This document shows, in pieces, positions 52,905 through 63,308 of a stretch of 64,000 bases of DNA. A model generated the notes under the pieces. That model did not search any database, was not told the origin of the DNA, and worked only from the letters and a program-made list of their open reading frames with translations. A program made the translations under genes and the position numbers. The first letter of the stretch is position 1, and each line of letters starts with the position of its first letter. This DNA is from Candidatus Latescibacterota bacterium (GTDB lineage Bacteria > Latescibacterota > UBA2968 > UBA8231): positions 896,001 to 960,000 of the forward strand of contig OZ242005.1 of assembly GCA_965204725.1 (NCBI GenBank). The letters run 5' to 3'.

Positions 52905-53258
52905 TTATCCTTCATCCCTTGCCAAGAGTATTTCGGCTTTCTGTAAAATCGCATCTACGGTCTCCGCGGGCAAAGGACATATTAAGGTCGCATTTCTCGC
53001 CCACCAATCCATGCTTTTGACCTGATCAGCCAGAATAACACCTATCACCGCCAGCCCCGCGGGAATGGCAATCTCAAAGGGATACCCCTTCACTTGATTG
53101 GTGATTGGGCAGAGAATCGCCAAACGGGTCTTGCGGTTATAGGTTCCCGGTGAAAGCACAACGGCGGGCCGACGACCGGCTTGCTCGTGTCCCGCTTGCG
53201 GATTGAAGTCAATCCACACTACATCGCCGCGCTGTGGGACGTACTCGGTTGAATTCAC
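52905..53258 (-). CDS. mazF: MazF/PemK endoribonuclease toxin
   Basis: PQRGDVVWIDFNPQAGHEQAGRRPAVVLS...DQVKSMDW. Confidence 0.93.
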   Translation of the reverse strand: MNSTEYVPQRGDVVWIDFNPQAGHEQAGRRPAVVLSPGTYNRKTRLAILCPITNQVKGYPFEIAIPAGLAVIGVILADQVKSMDWWARNATLICPLPAETVDAILQKAEILLARDEG

Positions 53259-53497
53259 TATGCTTCACCACCCACCGCCTGTCCGGTATCTACTTCGCCG
53301 TGCAAGTTGTCTGCGGTCACTTGGGCTAAAAGGTCGTCCAATTTCAAACTGGGCGTACTCACAGGCGCAACGACCAATTCCGCACCGCGAAGCGACAATT
53401 CGACTGGCGAATTGGGTTCAATCCCAATCTGGGTAGCGAGCGATTGAGGAATACGCAGGGCCAAACTATTGCCCCATTTCTGTATAAGAGCTTCCAT
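53258..53497 (-). CDS. mazE: MazE/AbrB antitoxin
   Basis: Start ATG 53497 after AGGAGG; KWGNSLALRIP; 1-bp overlap with mazF. Confidence 0.93.
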   Translation of the reverse strand: MEALIQKWGNSLALRIPQSLATQIGIEPNSPVELSLRGAELVVAPVSTPSLKLDDLLAQVTADNLHGEVDTGQAVGGEA

Positions 53498-53624
53498 AAT
53501 TTTCCTCCTTCCTACAGAACTCCTGAAATTCGTCGGGTGTATTGTTAATGGTAACAATTCCCTTGAATCGCGCTATGCGAGGCGCGTCCGCTTGCATAGA
53601 TATAGCAATCCTACATCCTTCAAG

Positions 53625-53721: not shown

Positions 53722-56700
53722 TCAAAGCTCCTGTCCTCGGCTCGCCAACTCCTCCAAATTCCACGCGACTGGGATGCGCATCCGGCCCTCGTTTTTGCGG
53801 TCGAAGAGCAGGTAGTTTTCGCGCAGCCCAAAGTAGAACAGGTCGCGGGTCAGCTCTACGTCCTTTTGGCAATAGTCGGCAATCAAGTCCAGCCGCCCCT
53901 GTTTGAACCACCTAAGCGCGTCGAGCCCGTCGGCGCTCTTGGGCGCGTTGAGCGTGGCCCGGCCTAGTGAGTCGAGACTCACTCGGTAGCGTAGCTGCTG
54001 GTGGACCTCGCGCAGAATATCGAGCGTGTTGAGCTGGCGGAAGTCGAATGGGCTATACCCGCGCAAGACCGAATAGTCAAAGCCAAGGATGTTGAAGCCG
54101 ACGATCAAATCGGCCGCCTGTAAGTGCTCTAAGAGCCGGTCGATGTCTTTCTCAAGATACGTGGTGCAACCCTGCTCGTGGCTGTCCCACACCACGCCGA
54201 CCGACAGGCCCATCAGATGGGCTTTGTTCCAGCCGCCAACTTCGGCGGCCGAGCGCTGGGTTTCGAGGTCGAACACGACCACGCGCGGGCCTTGCTCGGG
54301 CCGCTCGTCGGCTGCGCTTTCTTCTTCTTGTTCCCACTCGGCGAAAATCGGCGGAGCGTCTGCGACCTCGGCTGTAGATGGAGTGCGCTCAATGGCCCGA
54401 TGGCCGGTGAGTACGCCGAGCAGGTGGATCGCGCCGGCCTTGTCGAGGGGGACGTTGCCCGCGCCGCATGTGGGAAAGTGGATACAAGAGGGGCAGCCGA
54501 TCAGGCAATCGCAGGTTTCGACCATGGTCCGCGTCAGGTCCAAGAGGCGGTCGAGTTGGGCAAAGCCCTTTTCGGCGAGGCCAATGCCGCCGGGGTGATA
54601 GTCGTACACGAAAATCGCTCCTTTGCCGAGTTGTGGGTGCTGGGGATAGCATATTCCGCCGACATCCGTGCGGTCGCACAAGGCCAGCAGGGGGAAGAGC
54701 GACTTCACGGCGTGTTCAATGGCGTGGATCGAGCCCATGTAGTGGTGCTGGTGGCGGCTGAGGTCGGCCTTGAAGTGGGCGTCGAGCTCAATCCAGAAGC
54801 CTATGGTCTCAACGTGCTCCACCGGCGATTCGAGGGGGTGTTTGCTGAGGACGACTTGGTCGCCGACGCGGATCTTTTCGTAGCCCACCACCTGCGAGCT
54901 GACCTTGAGCCGGCCCAGCCGCGCCATAAAGCCCTGCAACGGCCGCGAGCGCAATTCCTCTAATATCTCGGTATCCTTTTCCGTGCGGGCGCGGGTAAAG
55001 TACGCCACGTGTACTTCCTCGGCGTAGATCTGGCCCTGCTGGGGATTGCGGTCGCCGATCTCGTACTGGCGGCCGCGATGCAAGTAAATCGCGCCTTTGT
55101 AGCACTCGCCATGCACTTGGCCGCCGCTGACCGTGCCGATTGGGTTGTGGTCGCGGTCGACGATGCGATACGACTCGCCGATGGTGCGCATGTTGACCAA
55201 GCGGTGCGGCTGCTTGCGGGCGGCAAACCAAGCGTCGCCCTCGGCATTCTGCAGCAGCGCCCCCTCCTCAGTCAGCGCGTCAAGGGTCGCCCGATAGTTG
55301 GGCAGCGCGTACTCGGGTTCGCCGGCCGCGAGGGGGAGCTCGCGCGCCGCACACGCGAGGTGGTTTTTGAGGATGTACTGATTAGTCGGGTCCACTACGG
55401 CGTCCTCCAAATCGCGAGTAAAAAACTCCTTGGGGTGCCGCATAAAATACTGATCGAGCGCGTCGGGAGACGCGATGAGGAGGATTAGGGACTCGCGGCC
55501 AGCGCGGCCCACGCGGCCGGCACGCTGCCAAGTGTTGATGATAGAACCCGGATACCCCACCAACACGCAAATATCCAAGCCGCCGATGTCAATGCCCAAC
55601 TCCAAGGCCGACGTGGCGACCACGCCCATGAGTTGGCCGGCGTTGAGTGCCTGCTCAATCTGGCGGCGCTCGCTGGGCAAATAGCCCGCGCGATACGAGG
55701 AAATCCGCGCCTGCAAGTCGGGGCGGCTCTGGGTGGCCCAGCGGTACACGAGCTCGGTGGTGATGCGGGCGCGGGTAAAGACAATCGTGCGATAGTCCTT
55801 GAGTACGCTGGCGCGCAGCACGTGCGCCGCGAGGGTGTTGGGGCTTTCGCTCGGGTTGACAAACACAAAGTGGCGCGTCGCGGCCGGCGCGCCATGGTCC
55901 TCAATCGCGCAAAAGGAGCGGTTGAGCAACTCGCCCGCTAGCTCGCGGGGGTTGCCCATCGTCGCCGAGCTGGTGATGTACACCGGATCGGCCCCGTAGT
56001 GCGCACAGATGCGGTTCAAGCGGCGAAAGAGGTGCAGCACGTGGGAGCCAAAGACGCCGCTGTACGCGTGCAATTCGTCGATGACCACGTAGCGCAGGCG
56101 AGCGAAAAAGCCGGCCCAAGCCTCGTGGAAGGCGAGGATGCCCGAATGCAGCATGTCCGGCGTGGTGAAAAGCACCTGCGGCGGCGTGGTGCGAATTTGC
56201 CGGCGGCGGTGGGCCGGGGTGTCGCCGTCGTAAATAGCCGCTTTCAGGGTGCCTCCCAAGCCCAGCATCAAGCCGTTTAACTCGTCGAACTGATCCTGCT
56301 CTAGGGCCTTGAGCGGGAAGATGTAGAGCGCGTGCGCGTCCGGGTCGTTGAGCAGCGTGGCCAGTACGGGTGCGTTGTACACTAAGGTCTTGCCCGAAGC
56401 CGTGGGCGTGGCTAGGGCCAAGTGCTGGCCTGCCAACACTTTTTGGATGCCCTCGGCTTGGTGCGTATAGAGCGCGGGAATGCGGGCGATTTTGAGGATG
56501 CGGGCCAAGGCCGGAGGCAGGCCCGATACGTCGCGGACTAGGCGCGCCGGGCGCGCCGGCAAGGTCTGGTGATGGACGACCTCGTTGCCCAAGATGCGGC
56601 GTTTGAGAAAGCGGATGTGCTCGGCGAGCCCCTCGGCGTCGCAGATCAAGGCTTGGTTTCCTGAAACAGGGTGGCGAAAACGAGCGGGGCGGAGAGTGAG

Positions 56701-56754
56701 AATAGCGAAGCCGTTGGAATGGGGCAAGGCGGGCGGCAGCAAACCCCTTCGCAT
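53722..56754 (-). CDS. DEAD/DEAH helicase + DUF1998 (MrfA/Hrq1-like) fused to an RNase H-like 3'-5' exonuclease (YprB/MrfB-like)
   Basis: TPTASGKT, DELH, QRAGRVGR, CDCLIGCPSC; C-terminal VFDLET...GFN..FD...YCQKDV. True start uncertain (possibly TTG 56649). Confidence 0.85.
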   Translation of the reverse strand: MRRGLLPPALPHSNGFAILTLRPARFRHPVSGNQALICDAEGLAEHIRFLKRRILGNEVVHHQTLPARPARLVRDVSGLPPALARILKIARIPALYTHQAEGIQKVLAGQHLALATPTASGKTLVYNAPVLATLLNDPDAHALYIFPLKALEQDQFDELNGLMLGLGGTLKAAIYDGDTPAHRRRQIRTTPPQVLFTTPDMLHSGILAFHEAWAGFFARLRYVVIDELHAYSGVFGSHVLHLFRRLNRICAHYGADPVYITSSATMGNPRELAGELLNRSFCAIEDHGAPAATRHFVFVNPSESPNTLAAHVLRASVLKDYRTIVFTRARITTELVYRWATQSRPDLQARISSYRAGYLPSERRQIEQALNAGQLMGVVATSALELGIDIGGLDICVLVGYPGSIINTWQRAGRVGRAGRESLILLIASPDALDQYFMRHPKEFFTRDLEDAVVDPTNQYILKNHLACAARELPLAAGEPEYALPNYRATLDALTEEGALLQNAEGDAWFAARKQPHRLVNMRTIGESYRIVDRDHNPIGTVSGGQVHGECYKGAIYLHRGRQYEIGDRNPQQGQIYAEEVHVAYFTRARTEKDTEILEELRSRPLQGFMARLGRLKVSSQVVGYEKIRVGDQVVLSKHPLESPVEHVETIGFWIELDAHFKADLSRHQHHYMGSIHAIEHAVKSLFPLLALCDRTDVGGICYPQHPQLGKGAIFVYDYHPGGIGLAEKGFAQLDRLLDLTRTMVETCDCLIGCPSCIHFPTCGAGNVPLDKAGAIHLLGVLTGHRAIERTPSTAEVADAPPIFAEWEQEEESAADERPEQGPRVVVFDLETQRSAAEVGGWNKAHLMGLSVGVVWDSHEQGCTTYLEKDIDRLLEHLQAADLIVGFNILGFDYSVLRGYSPFDFRQLNTLDILREVHQQLRYRVSLDSLGRATLNAPKSADGLDALRWFKQGRLDLIADYCQKDVELTRDLFYFGLRENYLLFDRKNEGRMRIPVAWNLEELASRGQEL

Positions 56755-56768
56755 CTCAGGACAGCAGT

Positions 56769-57941
56769 TTATCGAAAAATGTGCCCCACGTCGGTAAAAT
56801 GCCGCACGCTGGCATGGGACAGTTCCGGGGTGAGATGGCCGGCGTAGATGACGTAGCCTTTCTGGGTGGAGGCCGCGATCTGCTGGAACTGCGCGATCCC
56901 TTTGGCAAACTCTGGATGAAACGTCATGGCCGATTTGATTTCAATGGGGATTAACTGCCTGTTTTGCCGGAACAACAAATCGACTTCGTGGCCTTTGTTG
57001 TCGCGGTAAAAGTAGAGTTCAGGTTCTTTTCCCGCGTTGAGTCTGGCTTTCAAGGCTTCGATGACGATCATGTTTTCAAAGAGATTGCCGATCAGTGGAT
57101 CCCGGGCCGCCAGCGCGGGCGATTCAATGCCGAGCAAGTAGGACGCGAGCCCGACCTCGGTAAAATAGATTTTGGGCGATTTGACGATGCGTTTGCCAAA
57201 GTTTTCAAAATAGGGCTTCAACCTGAAAACGGTGTGCGATGCTTCGAGTACCGAGAGCCATTCTTTGAGCGTGGTGCTCGACACCCCCACGTCGTTGGCC
57301 AGCGAACTCAGATTCAAAACTTGGCCGACGCGGCCGGCGAGCAGGCGCGTGAAATGCTCAAAATCGGTCAGGCTCCTCAGATGGATCATTTGCCTAACGT
57401 CGCGCTCGATATAGGTTTGACAGTAATTTCGGTACAGGCGAGTCGGATTGACTTTTTCGCTGTACAGGCGGGGCATAAAGCCCTGATAGATCCATTCGTC
57501 GCGCGTGTGTTTGATGCGGGTCGCTTTGAGTTCGGCTATCGACAAGGGGAGCAGGCGCAAGAGGGCCGTGCGTCCGGCGAGGGATTGAGCAACGGTTTCT
57601 TGCAGACGCAACTGGTGGTGGCCGGTGAGAATGTATTGCCCGCGTTGCTGGCTGCTGTCCGCGAGGACTTGGATGGTTGAGAGCAGTTCGGGTACGCGCT
57701 GAATTTCGTCGATAATAACGGGCGGGGGAAATTGCGAGAAGAACGCGTGGGGATCGCTCATCGCCAGCCGGCGCACATCAGGTGCTTCGAGGTTTGCATA
57801 AGCGTAATTTGGAAACTGCATCCGCGCCAACGTGGTTTTTCCCGCTTGCCGTGGACCGATGATGGTCACCACGGGAAATTCGCTTGCCGTCGCGACCAAT
57901 TCTCTGGCAATTTGTCGCAAAATCACGGTTTTAAGCTCCAT
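56769..57941 (-). CDS. AAA_14 ATPase with DUF4143 domain
   Basis: Start ATG 57941; GPRQAGKTT, IIDEIQRVP, KSPKIYF, EVDL...IEIKS. Confidence 0.85.
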   Translation of the reverse strand: MELKTVILRQIARELVATASEFPVVTIIGPRQAGKTTLARMQFPNYAYANLEAPDVRRLAMSDPHAFFSQFPPPVIIDEIQRVPELLSTIQVLADSSQQRGQYILTGHHQLRLQETVAQSLAGRTALLRLLPLSIAELKATRIKHTRDEWIYQGFMPRLYSEKVNPTRLYRNYCQTYIERDVRQMIHLRSLTDFEHFTRLLAGRVGQVLNLSSLANDVGVSSTTLKEWLSVLEASHTVFRLKPYFENFGKRIVKSPKIYFTEVGLASYLLGIESPALAARDPLIGNLFENMIVIEALKARLNAGKEPELYFYRDNKGHEVDLLFRQNRQLIPIEIKSAMTFHPEFAKGIAQFQQIAASTQKGYVIYAGHLTPELSHASVRHFTDVGHIFR

Positions 57942-57975
57942 TCGCGTTGATGCTACGCGAGGAGAAAATAAAAGG

Positions 57976-58016
57976 ATCGGTACAGATCTCAAGTTACACT
58001 TGAAATTTGTACCGAT
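57976..58016. repeat. 18-bp imperfect inverted repeat upstream of the AAA_14 gene
   Basis: ATCGGTACAGATCTCAAG-ttaca-CTTGAAATTTGTACCGAT, 2 mismatches. Confidence 0.7.
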
Positions 58017-58071: not shown

Positions 58072-58112
58072 TTTGCTTGACAAATAAAGCAAATGCTCTA
58101 CATTCTAAGCAT
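58072..58112 (+). promoter_or_regulatory. Sigma70-like promoter of the pAgo operon overlapped by two TGCT-N10-AGCA palindromes
   Basis: TTGACA 58077-82 and TACATT 58099-104 (16 bp spacer). Palindromes at 58074-58091 and 58094-58111. RBS GGAGG at 58128. Confidence 0.65.
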
Positions 58113-58142
58113 ATTAGTTGAAAGGCCGGAGGTCATGTGAGC

Positions 58143-58487
58143 ATGAGTCACGAAGAGCAACTCGGTTCCTACCTCAAACGCGCTCGGAATACTGCGGGTC
58201 TGACGCTGCGGGCGGTTGAAGGGGAGACCGGTATATCTAACGGATACCTTAGCCAACTCGAGAGTGGCCAAGTGCGGCGTCCATCGCCGATGAACTTGCA
58301 CAAGCTGAGCGAACTCTATCGGCTACCCTATGCTGAAGTGATGGAAGCAGCAGGGTATCCTATACCTTCGACTCAATACAGCAACGAAGAACAGCGGTTC
58401 TTCGCGAGGCTTGGGGAGACTTCTAATGAAGAGAAAGAGGCACTGCTGGAGTATTTGGAGTTCATGCGAACTCGGAGAAAGCGGTAA
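58143..58487 (+). CDS. XRE-family HTH transcriptional regulator
   Basis: LGSYLKRAR..GLTLRAV..GISNGYLSQLESG..PS; start ATG 58143 or GTG 58137. Confidence 0.9.
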   Translation: MSHEEQLGSYLKRARNTAGLTLRAVEGETGISNGYLSQLESGQVRRPSPMNLHKLSELYRLPYAEVMEAAGYPIPSTQYSNEEQRFFARLGETSNEEKEALLEYLEFMRTRRKR

Positions 58488-58493
58488 CACATA

Positions 58494-59435
58494 ATGAGGT
58501 GGTCAGTGTCGAAGGCAAAGCAGTTCCAACGTTGTCAACGCCAGTGGTACTACAAGGAGATCGTCGGACGCCACTCTGCACCGGCGGGCAGTACTCGGCG
58601 TGAAGTCTATCTCCTCGGATTGCTGAAAAGTATCAGCCAGTGGCGCGGAGATATAGTCGATAACGTCCTCACTAGGGCCTTTCTCACTTGGCACAAGCAC
58701 CAGGTACGGCTCGATCCCGAAAAGATAATCTTCAATGCACGACGACAGTTTGATGAGCAGCTTGCCGTTGCAAGAGAGCATCACCTGCACAAGCCGGGTC
58801 TCACTCCATCGAAGTGGGAAAATTTCGTCGCATTCAGATGCATGGAATACGACAAGTCCATCCCGCAAGATGAACTGGATGCGGCTTGGCAAGAGATCGA
58901 ACAGGCGATCCGGAATCTATTCGAGATGCGCCCCGTTGCTGAGGCTATGCAGGGTACCAATGCGCTGGTAGCGCAACGCTCGTTGCAGTTCCAGCACTCG
59001 GACATGAACGTAGTAGCCAAGCCCGATTTGGTGGTCTTCTCCAAAGAAAGGCCACCCGTGATCATCGACTGGAAGGTGCATGCTTTCGGTGTTCAAGAGG
59101 CTTGGTTACAGCTTGGCATCTATGCCCTTGCTCTTTCACGTGCGAAACCGCACAAGGATTTTCCCCAAGATTGCTGCTCGTGGGCACCTACCGACGTTAA
59201 ACTCCTCGAAGTGCAATTGCTCAAGCAGGATTTAAGGGAATACCAGCTTTCCAAGAGGGATGTTACCCGTCTGGAAAACCATATCGCCACGACAGCGTAT
59301 GAGATGCTGTCTGCTGTCGGAACCGTGCGACCGAAATATGAGGACTTGATCCCCGAAGACTTCACTGTGACGCGCTATCCGACTACGTGCCAACAGTGTT
59401 CATACAAACGCGTTTGCTGGGAGGGAGAGGCATGA
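58494..59435 (+). CDS. Cas4/AddB-like PD-(D/E)XK nuclease with a putative Fe-S cluster
   Basis: C14 plus C299/C302/C308; KPDL...IIDWK...QLGIYAL RecB-type motifs. Confidence 0.85.
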   Translation: MRWSVSKAKQFQRCQRQWYYKEIVGRHSAPAGSTRREVYLLGLLKSISQWRGDIVDNVLTRAFLTWHKHQVRLDPEKIIFNARRQFDEQLAVAREHHLHKPGLTPSKWENFVAFRCMEYDKSIPQDELDAAWQEIEQAIRNLFEMRPVAEAMQGTNALVAQRSLQFQHSDMNVVAKPDLVVFSKERPPVIIDWKVHAFGVQEAWLQLGIYALALSRAKPHKDFPQDCCSWAPTDVKLLEVQLLKQDLREYQLSKRDVTRLENHIATTAYEMLSAVGTVRPKYEDLIPEDFTVTRYPTTCQQCSYKRVCWEGEA

Positions 59436-61813
59436 GCATGCTCGAAACCAACATCTTCGCCATCGAGAATCTGGATGCGCTGAAAACGGACTACGTTCTT
59501 TACAGAATTCGAGGTCTAACGAGGGGAGACAACGAGTATTTCCAGAACAAGGACGAGATCGCGAGAAAGCTAAGCTATGACCTCCAGAGGCCGGCACTCG
59601 TGATCGAAAGAAACGGCCACCCGTACCTCGTACTGCCCGCTGACACGCCTCCCCCGCCGCAGCCATTCTCACTTGTACGTGTGCAGGTGTACCTCGACAA
59701 ACAGAAGGAGTCGCTCACACTCGACTATGCGAAGCGGAATCATGAGACCGACGATATCTGCCTTCGCTTTCTCAACTTCTTCGCAGTCCAAGGCAGGTAT
59801 CGCAATGACAAGCGTTTGTGGCAACCGCGGTCCGGTCAGCCCTTCTTTGAGTACAAACCAGTCAAGACGATCAGAGGAATCGATGTCTTCCAGGGTTTCT
59901 CCGCCCGAGCGGTCATCACGCCCGACAATGGGATTGGCATTTGCCTCGATCTGCGCACGAAGTTTGTCGCGAGCAAGCCCCTTGACGCTAGACTGAAGCG
60001 TGACGGGTTCAGGCCATATCGCGGACAGCACTTCATCTATCGGTTCAAGGGCTGGTATGGGGTGCAGCTACAGGACTACTGCGATCTGAACGCCTCTGAA
60101 GCTCACATCGATACCGGAAACTGCTCAGTTTACAAGTACCTCAGACGCGAGTCCCCCAAGCCGCTACCTCAGCAGCTTGCCAATCTCCCTCGGGACGCAG
60201 CACTCGCCTACTACCAGACAAACCGCGGAAACCGTGTATACGCGAGTGTGGGCCTTTGCCATCTCATCTATGACACGCGGCATCCTGAGGTTCAGCGCCG
60301 GCAGGGGATGATGACCCCACAGCCCCACGAACGGGATCGCAAGATCCAAGAATATGCAGCCAAGTATCTACAAGGATTGCAGCTCGGACGCACTCGGCTT
60401 GAAGTGTCGCGTACGCCCATAACGGCACCCCGCAAGGTGTTCCAAGCACCAGATATCGAGTTTGGGGGTGAACACGTGCTCTCCGTCCGCCGGACGGCGG
60501 GTGCTCACATAGCGACTATGGATACACTGGGAAAAAAGAAGCAGCGGTTGCTTATGCGTGAGGACGCAGGCTTCTTCGTCAAGCGTCTCCTTGGTCCGCA
60601 GTACCTGATTATGCCTGAGAGCGTTTACAAGACATGGGGGAAACAGTATATCAAAAATTTAAAGCAGACGGTTGAACGGCTCTACGGTCCAGCCGAGCGA
60701 GACGAAGTACTGCCAGACGTACCCGTGTACGACCCGAAGGTAATCACCTACAACGACTGTGACTCAGGTCATACGTATGTCGAGCAGGGACGGGCAATCT
60801 TGGATGCCGCCGAGAAACATCGAGTGCGTGGTGGATACGGGTTGATAATGATTCATGACGCCTCGGACCGCGAGGTCAGGCAGGAGGACCAACTCGCCGC
60901 TATGCTCTCCCAGCAGTTTTGGGAGCAGCGTGATATGCGCATTACCGTAAACCATACGAAGACCGGGAGCGAATGCTACAGTCCGGTGAATGGTCAACAT
61001 GGGGCGTACGTTGTGAACCCGAAAAAGCGGGGCAAGCTCAATGGCTACCTACGCAATGTGGCGTTAAGTAAGATCCTTCTGAACAATGAAATGTGGCCGT
61101 TTGTCCTAGCCACCCCACTGCATGCGGACGTGACGATCGGCCTCGATGTGAAGCGCAACACAGTGGGCCTGACAGTCGTGAGCGATGGCGGACGCAGCAT
61201 CGCGACCTTATGTCGCAGGTCCAGTCAAAAGGAGAAGCTGACCCGCCGTCAGATCGAGACGCTCCTGACCGAACTGTTGCGCCATACAGCCGAGAAGCAG
61301 GCCGTCAAGGAGATTAAGGAGATCGTCATTCACCGCGACGGGCGGAGCTTCCAGTCCGAGATTGACGGTGCAATCAACGCGAAGAAGACCCTCCAAGCGG
61401 AGGGCCTCCTTCCTTCTGACGTGCGCATCACGATCTTGGACGTAAGCAAGACAGCCATGACTCAAGTGCGCCTATTCGACGTGAAGCGCACAAACGGTCG
61501 CTTACTACGGGTAGAGAACCCACAGAACGGCACGTACGTCTTTCTAGGAAATCAGGATGCGTACTTATGCTCAACAGGGCGAGAGTTCGGGCACTCCGGC
61601 ACCACCCAGATGTTGCATGTGCGGTATGAACTGCCTGGGCTGCCGTTTGAGCAGGCACTTGAAGACCTGTACTACCTAACGACGCTGACGTGGAGCAAAC
61701 CTGACGACTGCTCGCGCTACCCAGTGACGATGAAGCTGACCGACAGGTGGTTGTGGCAGGATGCAACGGAGTACAACCAAGACGTGCTCGTATATGGCGT
61801 CGAGGAGGGTTGA
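59432..61813 (+). CDS. ago: Long prokaryotic Argonaute, predicted catalytically active (DEDD)
   Basis: 793 aa from ATG 59432 (ATGA overlap). PIWI motifs IGLD572V, QKE601KL, IVIHRD636G, LTTLTW...RYPVTMKLTD771. Confidence 0.9.
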   Translation: MSMLETNIFAIENLDALKTDYVLYRIRGLTRGDNEYFQNKDEIARKLSYDLQRPALVIERNGHPYLVLPADTPPPPQPFSLVRVQVYLDKQKESLTLDYAKRNHETDDICLRFLNFFAVQGRYRNDKRLWQPRSGQPFFEYKPVKTIRGIDVFQGFSARAVITPDNGIGICLDLRTKFVASKPLDARLKRDGFRPYRGQHFIYRFKGWYGVQLQDYCDLNASEAHIDTGNCSVYKYLRRESPKPLPQQLANLPRDAALAYYQTNRGNRVYASVGLCHLIYDTRHPEVQRRQGMMTPQPHERDRKIQEYAAKYLQGLQLGRTRLEVSRTPITAPRKVFQAPDIEFGGEHVLSVRRTAGAHIATMDTLGKKKQRLLMREDAGFFVKRLLGPQYLIMPESVYKTWGKQYIKNLKQTVERLYGPAERDEVLPDVPVYDPKVITYNDCDSGHTYVEQGRAILDAAEKHRVRGGYGLIMIHDASDREVRQEDQLAAMLSQQFWEQRDMRITVNHTKTGSECYSPVNGQHGAYVVNPKKRGKLNGYLRNVALSKILLNNEMWPFVLATPLHADVTIGLDVKRNTVGLTVVSDGGRSIATLCRRSSQKEKLTRRQIETLLTELLRHTAEKQAVKEIKEIVIHRDGRSFQSEIDGAINAKKTLQAEGLLPSDVRITILDVSKTAMTQVRLFDVKRTNGRLLRVENPQNGTYVFLGNQDAYLCSTGREFGHSGTTQMLHVRYELPGLPFEQALEDLYYLTTLTWSKPDDCSRYPVTMKLTDRWLWQDATEYNQDVLVYGVEEG

Positions 61814-61817
61814 AATC

Positions 61818-62177
61818 ATGAGCGACCGGAGTTTACAATCAGGCTACTACAACACGATCAGCTACCTCGCCGAGCTTCTAGATGAGGCCTTGATGCAGAT
61901 CAAGCTCGCACGGGGCGGCGCACCCTCGTCAGAGGTCGAAAAGGTCTCCAAGATGTTGGAAGTAGCGGCTAGCGAGGAGTGCCGCGATCTCTCGACAGCA
62001 TTCCTGCGCTTGATCCTTCGAGATGAGCTAGGAGAGCAACAGCAGGCTTGGCAAGAACTAAGCGTACGACTTGGGCAGGGAGTGTGCGACGAGCATGACG
62101 TAGAGATGATGGAGCGGATTGCTGAAGTCGTGGACACCGAGCGGGCGTCGGCGTTTCGCAAAATGAGAGGGTTCTAG
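61818..62177 (+). CDS. Small acidic, predicted alpha-helical hypothetical protein
   Basis: 119 aa from ATG 61818 with RBS GAGGAGG, 4 bp after the ago stop; no recognisable motif. Confidence 0.7.
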   Translation: MSDRSLQSGYYNTISYLAELLDEALMQIKLARGGAPSSEVEKVSKMLEVAASEECRDLSTAFLRLILRDELGEQQQAWQELSVRLGQGVCDEHDVEMMERIAEVVDTERASAFRKMRGF

Positions 62178-63308
62178 GTGTTTGAGGAGTATATCAATGG
62201 AACTCTCGGCGAGTTGGAACGACGGGCACGAGTACTGCGGGCAAAAATTCCGCGAGACCTGCCAACCTACTATGCAACGCTCGTGAAGTCGTGCAACGAA
62301 CGGCTTAAAGAACTATTGTTTGCCCTCCGCGACCTGCGCGATAATCCTGCGTGGCAGGATGAGAAATTTCGCCCAGAGCGCCAGCGGCGTCTGCGCAGGA
62401 TCGTGACGGCTCTCGACAGGCTGGAGTCTGGCGGCATCACGGCCCTCTGTCGTGCGAACGAGGACGACCATTACTTCAACGGTCTGCTCGAACGCCTTCG
62501 ACGGGAAATCAAGTATCCGGGAGAACTGCCCACGGTCTCCTCGCTCTCGCAGCGTTACTTCTATGTCGATACGGATCTCAACCTCATGAGTGTACCGTTG
62601 GCCGAGCGACATTTTCTTCTCCATTTGCCGGATCTTTACCATGAACTAGCGCACCCACTCTTGGTAGCACGCGACGATTCGGTCATCGAGCCCCTACAGG
62701 ATAGGATGTTGGAGTCGGCGGCGGTGGCGATGGAGCACTTTCACACGATAGCACACGAAAGGGAAGGTGGGCGCACTCCAGAGCAGGAACGGAATCGGCT
62801 GCGGACATGGGAGTTCTACTGGGGCAAGTACTGGATCTTCGAGTTCTACTGCGACCTGTTCGCCACCTACACCCTAGGACCAGCCTTCGCGTGGTCACAC
62901 GTGCATCTGAGTGCCAAGCGGGGCGTGAACCCGTACGACTATTTGATGGAGCAGCATCCGGCCGACGCTGCGAGGATGTCCGTGCTCCTCATCGGCCTGC
63001 GCGAGATAGACTATGATGAAGAGGCGGAGGCAATCGCTAGGGTGTGGCAGTCGGTGATCGGCTCGTCGAGCTATAAGCCCCCGTCCGATTTCAGGACGTG
63101 CTATCCCCAAGATATGCTCGAAAAAATAGCCAAGCAGGGCCTTGAAGGAGTTAAAGCGATCGGATGCCGCATCGCACACGCTAAGTGCGATGACGAAATC
63201 CACACGCTCCTGAACGAGGCTTGGCAACGGTTCTGGGATAACCCGAGCGAGTACGCCGCTTGGGAGGATCAGAGGACGAGGAAGTTATCTAAATCGCGTC
63301 TGGCTTAG
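62178..63308 (+). CDS. HExxH zinc metallopeptidase-like protein (gluzincin, M48/M56-like motifs)
   Basis: GTG immediately after the previous stop; YH155ELAH159, E222FYCD226LFA, H260PADAAR. Confidence 0.7.
   Translation: MFEEYINGTLGELERRARVLRAKIPRDLPTYYATLVKSCNERLKELLFALRDLRDNPAWQDEKFRPERQRRLRRIVTALDRLESGGITALCRANEDDHYFNGLLERLRREIKYPGELPTVSSLSQRYFYVDTDLNLMSVPLAERHFLLHLPDLYHELAHPLLVARDDSVIEPLQDRMLESAAVAMEHFHTIAHEREGGRTPEQERNRLRTWEFYWGKYWIFEFYCDLFATYTLGPAFAWSHVHLSAKRGVNPYDYLMEQHPADAARMSVLLIGLREIDYDEEAEAIARVWQSVIGSSSYKPPSDFRTCYPQDMLEKIAKQGLEGVKAIGCRIAHAKCDDEIHTLLNEAWQRFWDNPSEYAAWEDQRTRKLSKSRLA

Follow-up and report, generated by a model that had tools for sequence, protein, structure and literature searches.

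Which function do the two genes that follow the Argonaute gene of this locus serve, and do they belong to its defence operon? In the window, i.e., the whole stretch of 64,000 nt analysed here, a prokaryotic Argonaute (pAgo) gene of the PliAgo type is followed by open reading frames (ORFs) for a 119-aa and a 376-aa protein. To our knowledge, no pAgos other than those of the PliAgo type are known to cut RNA with DNA guides, and PliAgo-type Argonautes are under development as RNA tools. The initial annotation of this DNA took the 376-aa product for a gluzincin-like metallopeptidase and offered two models: a CapP/ImmA-like enzyme that cleaves the XRE repressor of the operon, or a toxic effector held by the small protein and released on target recognition.

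Organization of the Operon

The operon is headed by the XRE gene, as the initial annotation had stated, followed by genes for the Cas4-like nuclease, the pAgo, the small protein, and the peptidase (Table 1). An alignment of 13 sequences revealed that the catalytic tetrad of the pAgo is intact, with D572, E601, D636, and D771 invariant. The pAgo stop codon (61811–61813) lies just before the small ORF, which starts with ATG at 61818 (MSDRSL...), has a ribosome-binding site, GAGGAGGG, 8–9 nt 5' of this start, and ends with TAG at 62175–62177. The 376-aa ORF (62178–63308) begins with GTG directly after this TAG, with no gap, which confirmed that the two genes abut. The stop codon of the small ORF falls at the extrapolated peptidase start, or at most 11 nt inside it, in 69 of 80 loci.

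Table 1. Positions of operon features in the window, with the basis of each assignment.
Feature	Position	Strand	Basis
Promoter-like site TTGACA-16-TACATT	58077–58104 (element 58072..58104)	+	XRE upstream region
Palindrome TTTGCTTGA / TAAAGCAAA	58072–58080 / 58085–58093		overlaps promoter-like site
XRE-family HTH repressor, 116 aa	58137..58487	+	Pfam HTH_31 7e-13; PADLOC capH 2.3e-8
Cas4-family PD-(D/E)XK nuclease, 313 aa	58494..59435	+	PADLOC Aga_Cas4-like_Nuc 2.8e-108; Pfam PDDEXK_1 3e-18
Long pAgo, PliAgo type	59432..61813	+	PADLOC pAgo_II 6e-260; PDB 7r8k/7r8f 'Argonaute' 6e-130, residues 3–787
Small acidic helical partner, 119 aa	61818..62177	+	conserved gene position, complex prediction
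Peptidase N-terminal three-helix bundle, residues 1–93	62178..62456	+	AF2 model
Peptidase catalytic gluzincin domain (predicted), residues 95–376	62460..63308	+	AF2 domain model, VIA-align, motif alignment
Peptidase motif codons HExxH; ExxxD; HPxxxxR	62640–62654; 62841–62855; 62955–62975		

The arrangement corresponds to the operon of the PliAgo group ('D-R'), described in the searchable text of PMC9360449 as an HTH regulator, a PD-(D/E)XK nuclease, and a pAgo, with a sister group that carries a sigma-70 factor. The window nuclease has the length of the ACE2-type nucleases, which average 313 aa according to the accessible text of PMC12094033. The two downstream genes are unmentioned in the searchable text of both papers; Figure 1b or the supplements of PMC9360449 may draw them. 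In the literature searched, no paper connected pAgo to HEXXH, or Argonaute to CapH/CapP. On a Runella plasmid, RefSeq labels both downstream genes as hypothetical proteins.

Linkage of the Pair to PliAgo-Type pAgos

In 73 of 80 loci centred on the peptidase, a pAgo gene is found upstream. Conversely, of 80 loci centred on the pAgo, 71 have the peptidase downstream, and the remaining 9 have less than 900 nt of downstream sequence; the peptidase was present in 71 of 71 assessable loci, and none was seen without it. The peptidase is itself accompanied by the small protein, a homologue of which is encoded directly 5' in 80/80 genome loci and 77/80 metagenome loci, and one homologue (P0041) has the two proteins fused. 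The small protein and the peptidase are a fixed part of the XRE/Cas4-like nuclease/active pAgo operon of the PliAgo type, and their linkage to these pAgos is as tight as that of the nuclease. This agrees with the earlier view that the small protein partners the peptidase in the pAgo operon. A link of the pair to the type IIG enzyme encoded downstream was rejected, with a tblastn relative in 1 of 80 loci. Among viral contigs, 25 pattern matches included no relative.

Motifs and Predicted Fold of the Peptidase

The 376-aa protein carries three motifs, H155-E156-L-A-H159, E222-F-Y-C-D226, and H260-P-A-D-A-A-R266, all invariant across 52 diverse homologues, down to 24% identity. Among 137 homologues drawn from 160 loci, H155, E156, H159, E222, D226, and H260 are kept in all 137, and P261 and R266 in 136. 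As the family spans at least 645 clusters at 50% identity, this conservation is far beyond chance. The HExxH, the distal Glu, and the HP..R motif noted in the initial annotation were thus confirmed, including the conservation of HExxH in homologues that it had singled out beforehand as a decisive point, and the conserved catalytic motifs support its assignment to gluzincin-like metallopeptidases.

The AF2 model of the whole peptidase (pLDDT 96.8) displayed an N-terminal three-helix bundle, in line with the helical N-terminus described before, and a remainder that is helical except for three short strands within residues 119–138. VIA-align matches of the whole model were helical bundles only, over residues 1–93, and we therefore folded the catalytic domain alone (pLDDT 96.6). 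Its best match was BepA (M48; 6sar), with a Z of 7.7 and an rmsd of 4.4 Å over 143 residues, followed by the M13 peptidases PepO, Zmp1, neprilysin, and ECE-1 (Z 6.8–7.5) and by ZMPSTE24 (Z 6.8); Ste24, 3c37, abylysin, and BlaR1 were also among the matches. Zinc peptidases occupied the top 8 rows and, judged by titles, about 36 of 50, all with Z below 8. Foldseek against the PDB returned nothing at E ≤ 0.001 for either the whole model or the catalytic domain, and a peptidase profile against PDB sequences returned only coiled-coil noise. The hydropathy peak (Kyte-Doolittle, 19 residues) was 0.96, with no signal peptide or membrane helix apparent. The model and motifs point to a soluble gluzincin, with M48 and M13 as the nearest peptidase families; a search of 41 genomes of the phylum for the M13 family itself (PF01431) found it in none.

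The protein matched no family in Pfam, PADLOC, NCBIfam, or PHROG, and the searches that covered the window peptidase in particular gave no Pfam match at E ≤ 10 and no PADLOC family at E ≤ 0.1. Nor did it match Pfam M48 (PF01435) at the curated threshold. One of the 52 family members matches Pfam M48 with an E of 7.6e-3, and a distant relative on L229 reaches 19.9 bits against a cut-off of 20.3. A low-stringency hhalign with 16 M48 domains placed HELAH on HEigH, EFYCD on E.eAD, and QHPADAAR on tHPp..eR, in the M48 order, with a probability of 10% (P 0.003) on small home-made alignments that score known families no better against each other (M78–M48 35%, M48–U49 27%). HExxH, ExxxD, and (S/T)HPxxxxR occur in the same order in M48/M56 peptidases (BepA, HtpX, Ste24; BlaR1) and in minigluzincins. 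The window peptidase differs from M48/M56 in falling below the Pfam threshold, in its predicted soluble, cytoplasmic nature, in a family-specific N-terminal bundle and a C-terminal helical domain, and in its dedicated partner; HtpX, Ste24, and BepA are membrane or periplasmic proteins. We consider it the representative of a new, unannotated gluzincin family with the M48-like motif set HExxH, ExxxD, and HPxxxxR. The nearest named Atlas clusters, U49 and M48 (score 0.78), serve as a lead only, and hhalign against four U49 (Lit) sequences gave a probability of 9% (P 0.0036).

Alternatively, the 376-aa protein might not work as a protease and instead be a zincin-like scaffold, or hydrolyse another substrate in a metal-dependent way, the small protein then being a structural subunit. 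The modest Z values, the empty Foldseek search, and the lack of a curated family would suit this reading. We regard it as highly improbable given that the three catalytic motifs do not vary among 137 sequences and align in the M48 order.

The CapP/ImmA-like family membership proposed in the initial annotation did not hold. According to the accessible text of the preprint 10.1101/2022.04.27.489752, CapP and IrrE combine a peptidase domain, an HTH-like linker, and, at the C-terminus, a GAF domain. The model of the window peptidase has no GAF-like sheet, with the three-helix bundle and a long helical insert in place of the linker and GAF domain, and the protein has no Pfam M78 (PF06114) match at E ≤ 0.1; we rejected membership in CapP/ImmA/IrrE (M78) on these two grounds. 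Weak signals toward M78 exist nevertheless: 4 of the 52 relatives match it (best E 7.7e-4), and H155ExxH159 together with E222FYCDLFA places the Glu ligand in an E..aN.FA-type helix, as in M78. With 30 M78 domains from related genomes, hhalign aligned 19 columns at this ExxCDxFA motif (probability 54%, P 1.3e-4). A helical insert of roughly 60 residues makes the motif spacing differ from that of M78.

The Small Partner and the Predicted Complex

The small protein (119 aa) is helical and acidic, as first described, with a pI of 4.67 and 22 acidic versus 14 basic residues. Its two ends are conserved (N-terminal MSxxGLxSxxY and C-terminal LExLAxxLExERAxxxARMRG). Searches of the four libraries (Pfam, PADLOC, NCBIfam, and PHROG) returned no family, the Atlas no usable relative, and a profile search against the PDB only noise.

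Complex prediction with the peptidase, which the initial annotation had called for, gave a score of 0.75 (runs 0.75, 0.79, and 0.74), compared to 0.00 for the best control. The mark for this score is reached by 116 of 157 solved complexes and by 2 of 215 mismatched pairs, counts that hold only roughly since custom alignments were supplied. The runs share at least 87% of contacts, with a partner pLDDT of at least 81. Residues 1–13 of the small protein are predicted to contact peptidase residues 127–133, 152, E156, H159, 162–165, E222, 225, and 259–260, so that its conserved N-terminus would lie in the catalytic cleft as a plug, with residue 5 beside H159 and residue 8 beside residue 131 on the edge strand. 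The helices of the small protein are predicted to dock on the three-helix bundle of the peptidase, which they would contact at its residues 63–84. The part of the earlier effector model in which the peptidase is held by the small protein is backed by this predicted plug in the active site; the prediction fits an inhibitor or a substrate alike.

The placement of the tail in the cleft and the conservation of the N-terminal motif could also indicate that the small protein is the true substrate of a signalling or maturation protease. It might be cut, for example, near the conserved G5-L6, thereby releasing or destroying a factor with an effect on pAgo, nuclease, or transcription; otherwise the peptidase may process either of these two proteins or an effector encoded nearby, e.g., the dCTP deaminase. 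The varied effectors with which the pair combines (pAgo and nuclease, dCTP deaminase-like proteins, and a fused CHAT protease) are consistent with this reading. The pair is, however, retained where no effector remains, and the accessible text of PMC12094033 reports that the APACE1 pAgo and nuclease, which belong to another pAgo clade, work in E. coli without such genes. Taken together, we find a signalling or maturation role rather improbable.

The XRE Repressor and Its Operator

An alignment of 71 XRE sequences revealed an HTH, an AGYP(V/I)P linker, and a conserved C-terminal helix that begins at an invariant Arg (R91). The match to PADLOC capH extends over residues 8–112, i.e., the whole length, and the relatives in the PDB are the HTH parts of immunity repressors, ClgR, SinR, and ImmR. 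The XRE is thus CapH-like in layout. Of 71 loci, 62 have the hexamer GCTTGA at most 100 nt 5' of the XRE start, compared to 129 of 3550 background windows (consensus TGCTTGACAnATnnAGCAA), and the palindrome over the promoter-like site is likely the operator of the XRE repressor.

These features bear on whether the peptidase works as a CapP/ImmA/BlaR1-like switch. In such a switch the small protein would hold the peptidase off until an invasion signal, such as ssDNA that the Cas4-like nuclease produces or a pAgo carrying guide and target, activates it to cleave the negative regulator and induce the operon. The substrate would be the CapH-like XRE here and a protein of about 190 aa, encoded beside the sigma factor, in sister operons. 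CapP/CapH (CBASS), ImmA/ImmR, and IrrE/DdrO likewise join an HExxH zinc peptidase to an XRE repressor, and BlaR1 cleaves the BlaI repressor. In CapP/CapH the operator overlaps the promoter, as it does here, and a CapH-like XRE sits in the same defence operon; a palindromic operator over the −35 element in 62 of 71 loci would imply that an inducer is needed. The accessible text of the preprint 10.1101/2022.04.27.489752 names F82/R83, in the C-terminal domain's first helix, as the site at which CapP cuts CapH, and states that the CapP active site is blocked by its own cysteine switch. The C-terminal helix of the XRE with its invariant Arg would be the kind of site that CapP cuts, and the predicted plug would block the resting active site in trans as the cysteine switch does internally. 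The weak M78 signals described above also point in this direction.

Several differences from CapP weigh against a switch. The window peptidase has a separate small partner, lacks the M78 match and the GAF domain, and is not encoded adjacent to the XRE as CapP is to CapH. The genome of the window also holds six true M78 peptidase matches, which could cleave the XRE in trans.

The Pair Outside the Full Operon

Three sigma-factor operons (L219, L220, and L233) contain the pair without an XRE gene. The exchange of regulator with retention of the peptidase fits the removal of whatever negative regulator is present, as a switch would require; the ~190-aa protein of these operons, however, scored an hhalign probability of 1.4% and 0.2% as an anti-sigma factor/HTH protein, and we rejected it as an XRE-like HTH protein. 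No regulator gene adjoins the pair in three further cases: a second copy in the genome of the window (G000), which lies beside a type IIG enzyme, an AIPR gene, and a broken relBE-like pair; a lone copy in L254, likewise without XRE; and an Aphanizomenonaceae plasmid, for which the gene table is incomplete. Distant relatives adjoin dCTP deaminase-like genes, with no XRE seen there, and two relatives carry a fused CHAT (protease) domain; a plasmid search with a dCTP-deaminase-linked relative returned no match.

The pair also outlives the nuclease and the pAgo. The XRE, small protein, and peptidase are kept in eight loci from which the pAgo is deleted, with pAgo remnants of at most 58 aa in L003, L004, and L065, no remnant in L023 and L052, and a deletion in L256, L261, and L262. 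In a ninth locus, L259, transposase genes (insertion sequences) split both nuclease and pAgo and the pair is intact. The comparison of L261 with L262 yielded dN/dS values of 0.144 (peptidase; dS 0.42), 0.168 (small protein), and 0.115 (XRE). The pAgo remnant of these two loci had a dN of 0.186 and a stop codon, compared to a dN of 0.059 for the same stretch in an intact pair. The nested deletion junctions differ between L261 and L262, so the deletions may be independent, which weakens the argument from selection.

The pair is thus kept independently of neighbouring genes. Cleavage of the XRE, as in the first model of the initial annotation, gains from the CapH-like repressor behind a conserved operator and loses from the occurrence of the pair in sigma operons without XRE, alone, and beside dCTP deaminase-like genes. 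Purifying selection on the pair where no pAgo remains to regulate argues further against a regulatory switch, and we consider this reading possible but doubtful.

A Proposed Latent Protease Held by a Cognate Plug

The reading that we tentatively favour, although it falls somewhat short of being probable, is that the protease is latent, kept in check by a cognate plug or antitoxin-like protein, and that the two are selected as a separate unit. An inhibitor–enzyme relationship is suggested by the small gene abutting or overlapping the peptidase gene, a layout like that of antitoxin and toxin genes, and a unit of its own by the persistence of the pair after loss of the pAgo and its occurrence without XRE. 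The 376-aa protein would be a soluble zinc endopeptidase and the 119-aa protein its obligate partner, the helices of which would dock on the N-terminal bundle while the tail runs along the edge strand in the cleft, as an inhibitory plug or first substrate. The two would be translated in a coupled fashion, and the XRE, acting at the conserved operator, would repress them along with the nuclease and pAgo. We infer that the pair acts as the antitoxin and toxin of a three-part module of repressor, small inhibitor, and enzyme. The protease would be silent as long as the small protein is present, and the trigger may be its displacement, cleavage, or failing synthesis, for example upon infection or target recognition by the RNA-cutting pAgo. 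The freed protease could then act on cellular or invader proteins as a second, abortive or addictive arm of the pAgo system. An extra effector would not be needed for interference itself, because the DEDD tetrad is intact and relatives of the window pAgo cleave RNA on their own in vitro, according to the accessible text of PMC9360449.

The omega-epsilon-zeta modules offer a parallel in layout and in retention of the pair. They combine a separate repressor with a gene for a small helical acidic inhibitor that overlaps a larger enzyme gene. They share no homology with the window pair, of which any toxicity is presumed, and two large defence genes stand between repressor and pair in the window. 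Lit of e14 (Peptidase_U49), which targets EF-Tu, is a precedent for a zinc protease as a phage-exclusion effector. Lit has no known plug protein, and the hhalign score of U49 against the window peptidase is the low one given above. The dCTP deaminase-like neighbours and CHAT fusions of distant relatives would fit a switch or activator at least as well as a toxin.

Guide-dependent RNA-targeting nucleases with a protease and a small substrate or partner are also found in Craspase, in which Cas7-11/Csx29 cuts Csx30 and a sigma factor is present, and in the comparable CalpL/CalpT/CalpS; the sister operons of the window likewise contain a sigma factor. By analogy, a DNA-guided RNA-cutting pAgo on an invader transcript might strip or expose the plug and free the zincin to cut the plug and the XRE or sigma-factor partner, or cellular targets. 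Such an Argonaute counterpart of Craspase appears unlikely to us. The protease classes differ, a predicted zincin here versus caspase-like or Lon-like enzymes in Craspase and CalpL, and activation of the protease by pAgo is a proposal by analogy. If true, target RNA recognition would be converted into a proteolytic signal, and this pAgo protease arm would have arisen independently of type III CRISPR.

Implications for PliAgo-Type Immunity

The searchable text of two key papers on PliAgo-type systems (PMC9360449 and PMC12094033) is confined to pAgo, nuclease, and regulators. New here is an unannotated protease family with a dedicated predicted plug protein, linked to PliAgo-type pAgos. The pair suggests, as far as the models can tell, that this immune system includes a hidden step of proteolysis, and reconstitutions with pAgo alone probably miss part of the system. 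Zinc peptidases gain a new family of the size given above, which also occurs beside other defence genes. For PliAgo-type systems, the coupling of RNA targeting to a cellular response becomes a testable idea.

A Five-Gene Operon Ending in a Tightly Joined Pair

The operon consists of five tightly packed genes encoding an XRE repressor, a nuclease, a long pAgo, a small acidic protein (pI 4.67), and a peptidase. The initial annotation, an HExxH protein abutted by a small acidic protein in an XRE-headed operon, proved accurate at the positions it gave. Neither of the last two proteins had a match in Pfam, PADLOC, NCBIfam, or PHROGs; the peptidase carries the motifs H155ExxH159, E222xxxD226, and H260PxxxxR266. 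The small gene has the ribosome-binding site GAGGAGGG and an ATG 4 nt after the pAgo stop, and the GTG start of the peptidase gene directly abuts the TAG of the small gene. Judged from sequence, these junctions show what is presumably coupled translation of the terminal genes.

Positions of the features discussed (in the window unless a locus or genome is named)
Feature	Position	Strand	Match or remark
Five-gene operon	58137-63308	+	
XRE repressor	58137-58487	+	HTH_31 7e-13; PADLOC capH 2.3e-8
Cas4-family PD-(D/E)XK nuclease	58494-59435	+	Aga_Cas4-like_Nuc 2.8e-108
Long pAgo	59432-61813	+	pAgo_II 6e-260
Small protein, 119 aa	61818-62177	+	no family match
Peptidase, 376 aa	62178-63308	+	no family match
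-35/-10-like site	58077-58104		
Palindrome overlapping it	58072-58093		
Inverted repeat, 19 nt	57976-58016		89% complementary, 3-nt loop
Defence island	53722-57992	-	upstream of operon
Two ORFs, presumably toxin-antitoxin	52905-53258, 53258-53557		
Type IIG enzyme, 1035 aa	63357-63998 onward (L002 6358-9465)	+	PADLOC REase_MTase_IIG 5e-67
Sigma-70-like + ~180-200-aa genes	L219 2820-4053; L220 2894-3993; L233 1790-2928		operon start
Second copy of the pair	G000:C1:3106299-3107846 (L237 9282-10850)		
Rows with dCTP deaminase-like gene	L263 6324-8761; L264 6046-8204		DCD 4e-41, 2e-25
Ubiquitin-like genes, Runella pRUNSL03	L232 7441-9620		directly 3' of operon
Distant pAgo-like gene and peptidase homologue	L227 (G520:C1:2674950-2675999)		

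The defence island upstream holds an AAA+DUF4143 gene (PADLOC PDC-S01 2e-96) along with a DEAD/MrfA-Zn helicase of 1010 aa whose C-terminal part is RNase H-like (BrxHI-like 2e-46); the inverted repeat lies where the AAA+DUF4143 gene region begins, between the two divergent units. The two small ORFs resemble a toxin of the MazF/PemK kind and its AbrB/MazE-type antitoxin. Downstream, a type IIG restriction-modification gene starts 48 nt past the peptidase gene, followed by ilvD and other housekeeping genes. We rejected this enzyme as part of the unit, as it was found in 1 of 80 peptidase-centred loci.

Linkage of the Pair to pAgo

These 80 loci came from reference genomes of many phyla, with neighbours sought by tblastn. 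XRE turned up in 70 and the nuclease in 65. A pAgo match was obtained in 76; since three of the matches are remnants, a pAgo gene is present in 73. Starting from pAgo, the peptidase lay downstream in 71 of 80 metagenome loci (the best 80 of 271 relatives), and no locus was seen without it because the other nine end <900 nt past pAgo. Among 401 Bacteroidota genomes, the pAgo profile hit six and the peptidase profile the same six, adjoining pAgo. The pair belongs to the pAgo system. In L227, a distant pAgo-like gene precedes a peptidase homologue that carries a TAA in frame, and the locus may be decaying.

The DEDD tetrad of the pAgo is invariant, and its nearest solved relative is 7r8k/7r8f (6e-130). 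We take structures 7r8f-7r8k to be PliAgo, and RslAgo is presumably a studied member. The operon fits the layout that the text of PMC9360449 gives for the PliAgo group, whose pAgos cut RNA under DNA guidance, namely an HTH regulator, a PD-(D/E)XK nuclease, and pAgo. In their searchable text, PMC9360449, PMC12094033, and PMC6299218 mention neither a peptidase nor the small gene. The same five genes occur on the Runella slithyformis plasmid pRUNSL03, where the last three are annotated as hypothetical. Directly 3' of them lies what looks like a ubiquitin-like defence cassette, coding for a multiubiquitin-domain protein, an adenylyltransferase of the ThiF family, and a DUF6527 protein.

A Probable New Family of Soluble Gluzincins

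For the peptidase family, a full scan of 1.84 billion representatives returned 645 clusters at E <= 0.001, of which 149 reached E <= 1e-30. A word-indexed search gave 683 proteins, every named one hypothetical; the 120 of these that were listed had no precomputed Pfam domain. Conservation of HExxH, on which the initial annotation had staked its reading, was borne out: H155, E156, H159, E222, D226, and H260 were kept in 137/137 sequences from 160 loci, and P261 and R266 in 136/137. Across 52 diverse members at 24-45% identity, E83, P140, G234, and W349 were invariant together with all eight of these residues. On sequence evidence, the 376-aa protein is a member of a real, large family with fixed, putatively catalytic motifs. 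Three members (P0129, P0148, and P0144) are extended at the C-terminus; the extension holds a CHAT (caspase-like) domain (8tl0 at 1.5e-15) in two of these cluster representatives and a second HExxH domain in the other.

The AlphaFold2 model (pLDDT 96.8, pTM 0.94, 52-sequence alignment) displayed a three-helix bundle (1-93) followed by a domain built of three short strands (119-138), the HExxH-bearing helix, and numerous other helices. Foldseek with the whole model or the catalytic domain gave nothing at E <= 0.001, and VIA-align with the whole model returned only helical bundles matching the N-terminal part. Folded alone (pLDDT 96.6), the catalytic domain gave a VIA-align list headed by zinc peptidases, which made up ~36 of 50 rows judging from entry titles: BepA (6sar, Z 7.7, rmsd 4.4 Å, 143 residues aligned), PepO, Zmp1, neprilysin, and ECE-1 (Z 6.8-7.5), ZMPSTE24 (6.8), 3c37 (6.6), Ste24 (6.0), abylysin (5.4), BlaR1 (4.7), and PprI (4.2). 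As all Z values are below 8, these matches indicate a fold class, not a family.

Pfam M78 was touched by 4/52 members (best E 7.7e-4) and M48 by 1/52. Against alignments of true M78 (30 sequences), M48 (16), and U49 (4) domains from related genomes, hhalign gave 54% for M78 (P 1.3e-4, 19 columns at ExxCDxFA), 10% for M48, and 9% for U49, percentages that cannot place the family because the known families score no higher among themselves (27-67%). More telling, as a sequence comparison, is probably a low-stringency M48 alignment that brings HExxH, ExxxD, and HPxxxxR in order onto HEigH, E.eAD, and tHPp..eR. A distant 392-aa relative (L229; family profile 2.6e-4, hhalign 93.5%) scored 7.2e-4 and 19.9 bits against Pfam M48 (cut-off 20.3), and apparently links the two families. 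No membrane segment was found in the peptidase. We conclude that it is probably a soluble gluzincin of a new family whose motif set is M48-like. The gluzincin-like assignment proposed initially is supported by these motifs and the zinc-peptidase fold matches. The 376-aa peptidase falls outside M78 and has no GAF domain, which CapP and IrrE possess.

The Small Protein as a Probable Dedicated Partner

By HMM search, the peptidase gene is immediately preceded by a homologous ORF of ~117-125 aa in 80/80 genome and 77/80 metagenome loci; jackhmmer found it in 79/80 loci. In 69/80 loci the small gene stops at the extrapolated start of the peptidase gene or runs up to 11 nt into that gene, and one 495-aa protein (P0041) is a fusion of the two. 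Conservation is highest at the N-terminus (M1, S2, G5, L6, S8, and Y11) and the C-terminal helix.

Structure prediction of the two proteins together, a check the initial annotation had proposed, gave a complex score of 0.75 (runs 0.75, 0.79, and 0.74; best control 0.00), with partner pLDDT of at least 81 and contact agreement of at least 87%. The score mark was reached by 116/157 solved complexes and 2/215 mismatched pairs, counts that hold roughly because self-built alignments went into the prediction. The best run has small-protein residues 1-13 entering the cleft of the peptidase and contacting its edge strand (127-133), E156, H159, 162-165, E222, 225, and 259-260, with small-protein helices 15-29 and 99-117 packed onto helix 63-84 of the N-terminal bundle. 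The model supports binding of the small protein to the peptidase, through contacts compatible with an inhibitor or a substrate. A role of the small protein as substrate or in signalling would fit its pairings with other effectors, and we consider it quite improbable. The operon probably encodes, as a coupled pair, an intact zinc protease and a dedicated partner predicted to fill its cleft.

Regulation and the CapP-Like Model

In 62/71 loci the motif GCTTGA lies no more than 100 nt 5' of where XRE starts, versus 129/3550 random windows, and the operator-like consensus TGCTTGACAnATnnAGCAA has a median distance of 38 nt from the start codon. With a conserved palindrome over the promoter-like site, XRE very likely represses its own operon, the leader being short or absent. 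Only a few bases separate the end of the -10-like element from the start codon of XRE in most of loci L007-L046, so the operon mRNA may be leaderless; the window copy has a longer spacer.

In the XRE protein, an HTH and an AGYPVP motif precede a C-terminal helix that opens at an invariant Arg. According to the available text of 10.1101/2022.04.27.489752, CapP cleaves CapH at F82/R83, within the first helix in CapH's C-terminal domain. This resemblance keeps alive the proposal that the protease removes the operon's negative regulator, since XRE is CapH-like and needs an inducer. In the operons of L219, L220, and an Emticicia plasmid (L233), a sigma-70-like gene and a ~190-aa gene replace XRE, and nuclease, pAgo, small protein, and peptidase are all still present. 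The L219 peptidase matches the family by hhalign (probability 100%, E 5e-49), and the three small proteins retain the MSD start and ERA..RK.R end. The protein beside the sigma-70-like gene had no Pfam or PADLOC match and may be an anti-sigma factor. The exchange of XRE for this sigma-factor pair could point to a protease that removes whichever negative regulator is present. We nevertheless regard cleavage of the regulator as less likely, as the pair is kept without XRE in these operons, in a second copy in the window's own genome, and in L254, where the copy stands alone.

The second, divergent copy (150 aa and 371 aa, E 1.9e-41) adjoins an AIPR gene, an Eco57I-like type IIG enzyme, and a broken relBE-like pair; no XRE or pAgo was found beside it. 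Its orthologue in L255 lies in the row XRE-nuclease-410 aa-IS-345 aa-small-peptidase. In L228/L263 and L229/L264, distant relatives of the pair, a small gene and a peptidase-like gene, are directly followed by a dCTP deaminase-like gene; PADLOC matched no protein of these rows, which may be a separate, undescribed defence cassette.

Retention of the Pair after pAgo Loss

The pair persists in loci where pAgo and the nuclease are missing or disrupted. Loci L003, L004, and L065 hold XRE, small protein, and peptidase with pAgo remnants of <=58 aa whose end points differ; L023 and L052 had no pAgo within the locus sequence examined. Of the 15 matches in the window's class outside its own genome, 9 were examined and 7 have the window-type peptidase. 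The operon is intact in L257 and L260; in L258 a transposase gene separates the nuclease from pAgo, and in L259 transposases split both of these genes. L256, L261, and L262 are reduced to XRE, a remnant of <=79 aa, and the genes for the small protein and the peptidase. When L261 was compared with L262, dN/dS was 0.144 in the peptidase (dS 0.42), 0.168 in the small gene, and 0.115 in XRE. For the pAgo remnant, which contains a stop codon, dN was 0.186, compared with 0.059 for the corresponding segment in the intact pair L257/L260. This suggests that the trio is under selection after pAgo loss. The L261 and L262 deletion junctions are nested, not identical, so the deletions may be independent.

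Analogies are offered by Craspase/Csx30, CalpL/CalpT/CalpS, Lit and EF-Tu, omega-epsilon-zeta, and BlaR1 and BlaI. Because of the gene layout, the predicted plug, retention after pAgo loss, and occurrence without XRE, we tentatively favour, with a little under even confidence, a selected unit of its own in which the antitoxin-like small protein would hold the protease latent. Once freed, the protease would act on cellular or invader proteins, and may thus form a second, abortive or addictive arm of an RNA-targeting pAgo system.
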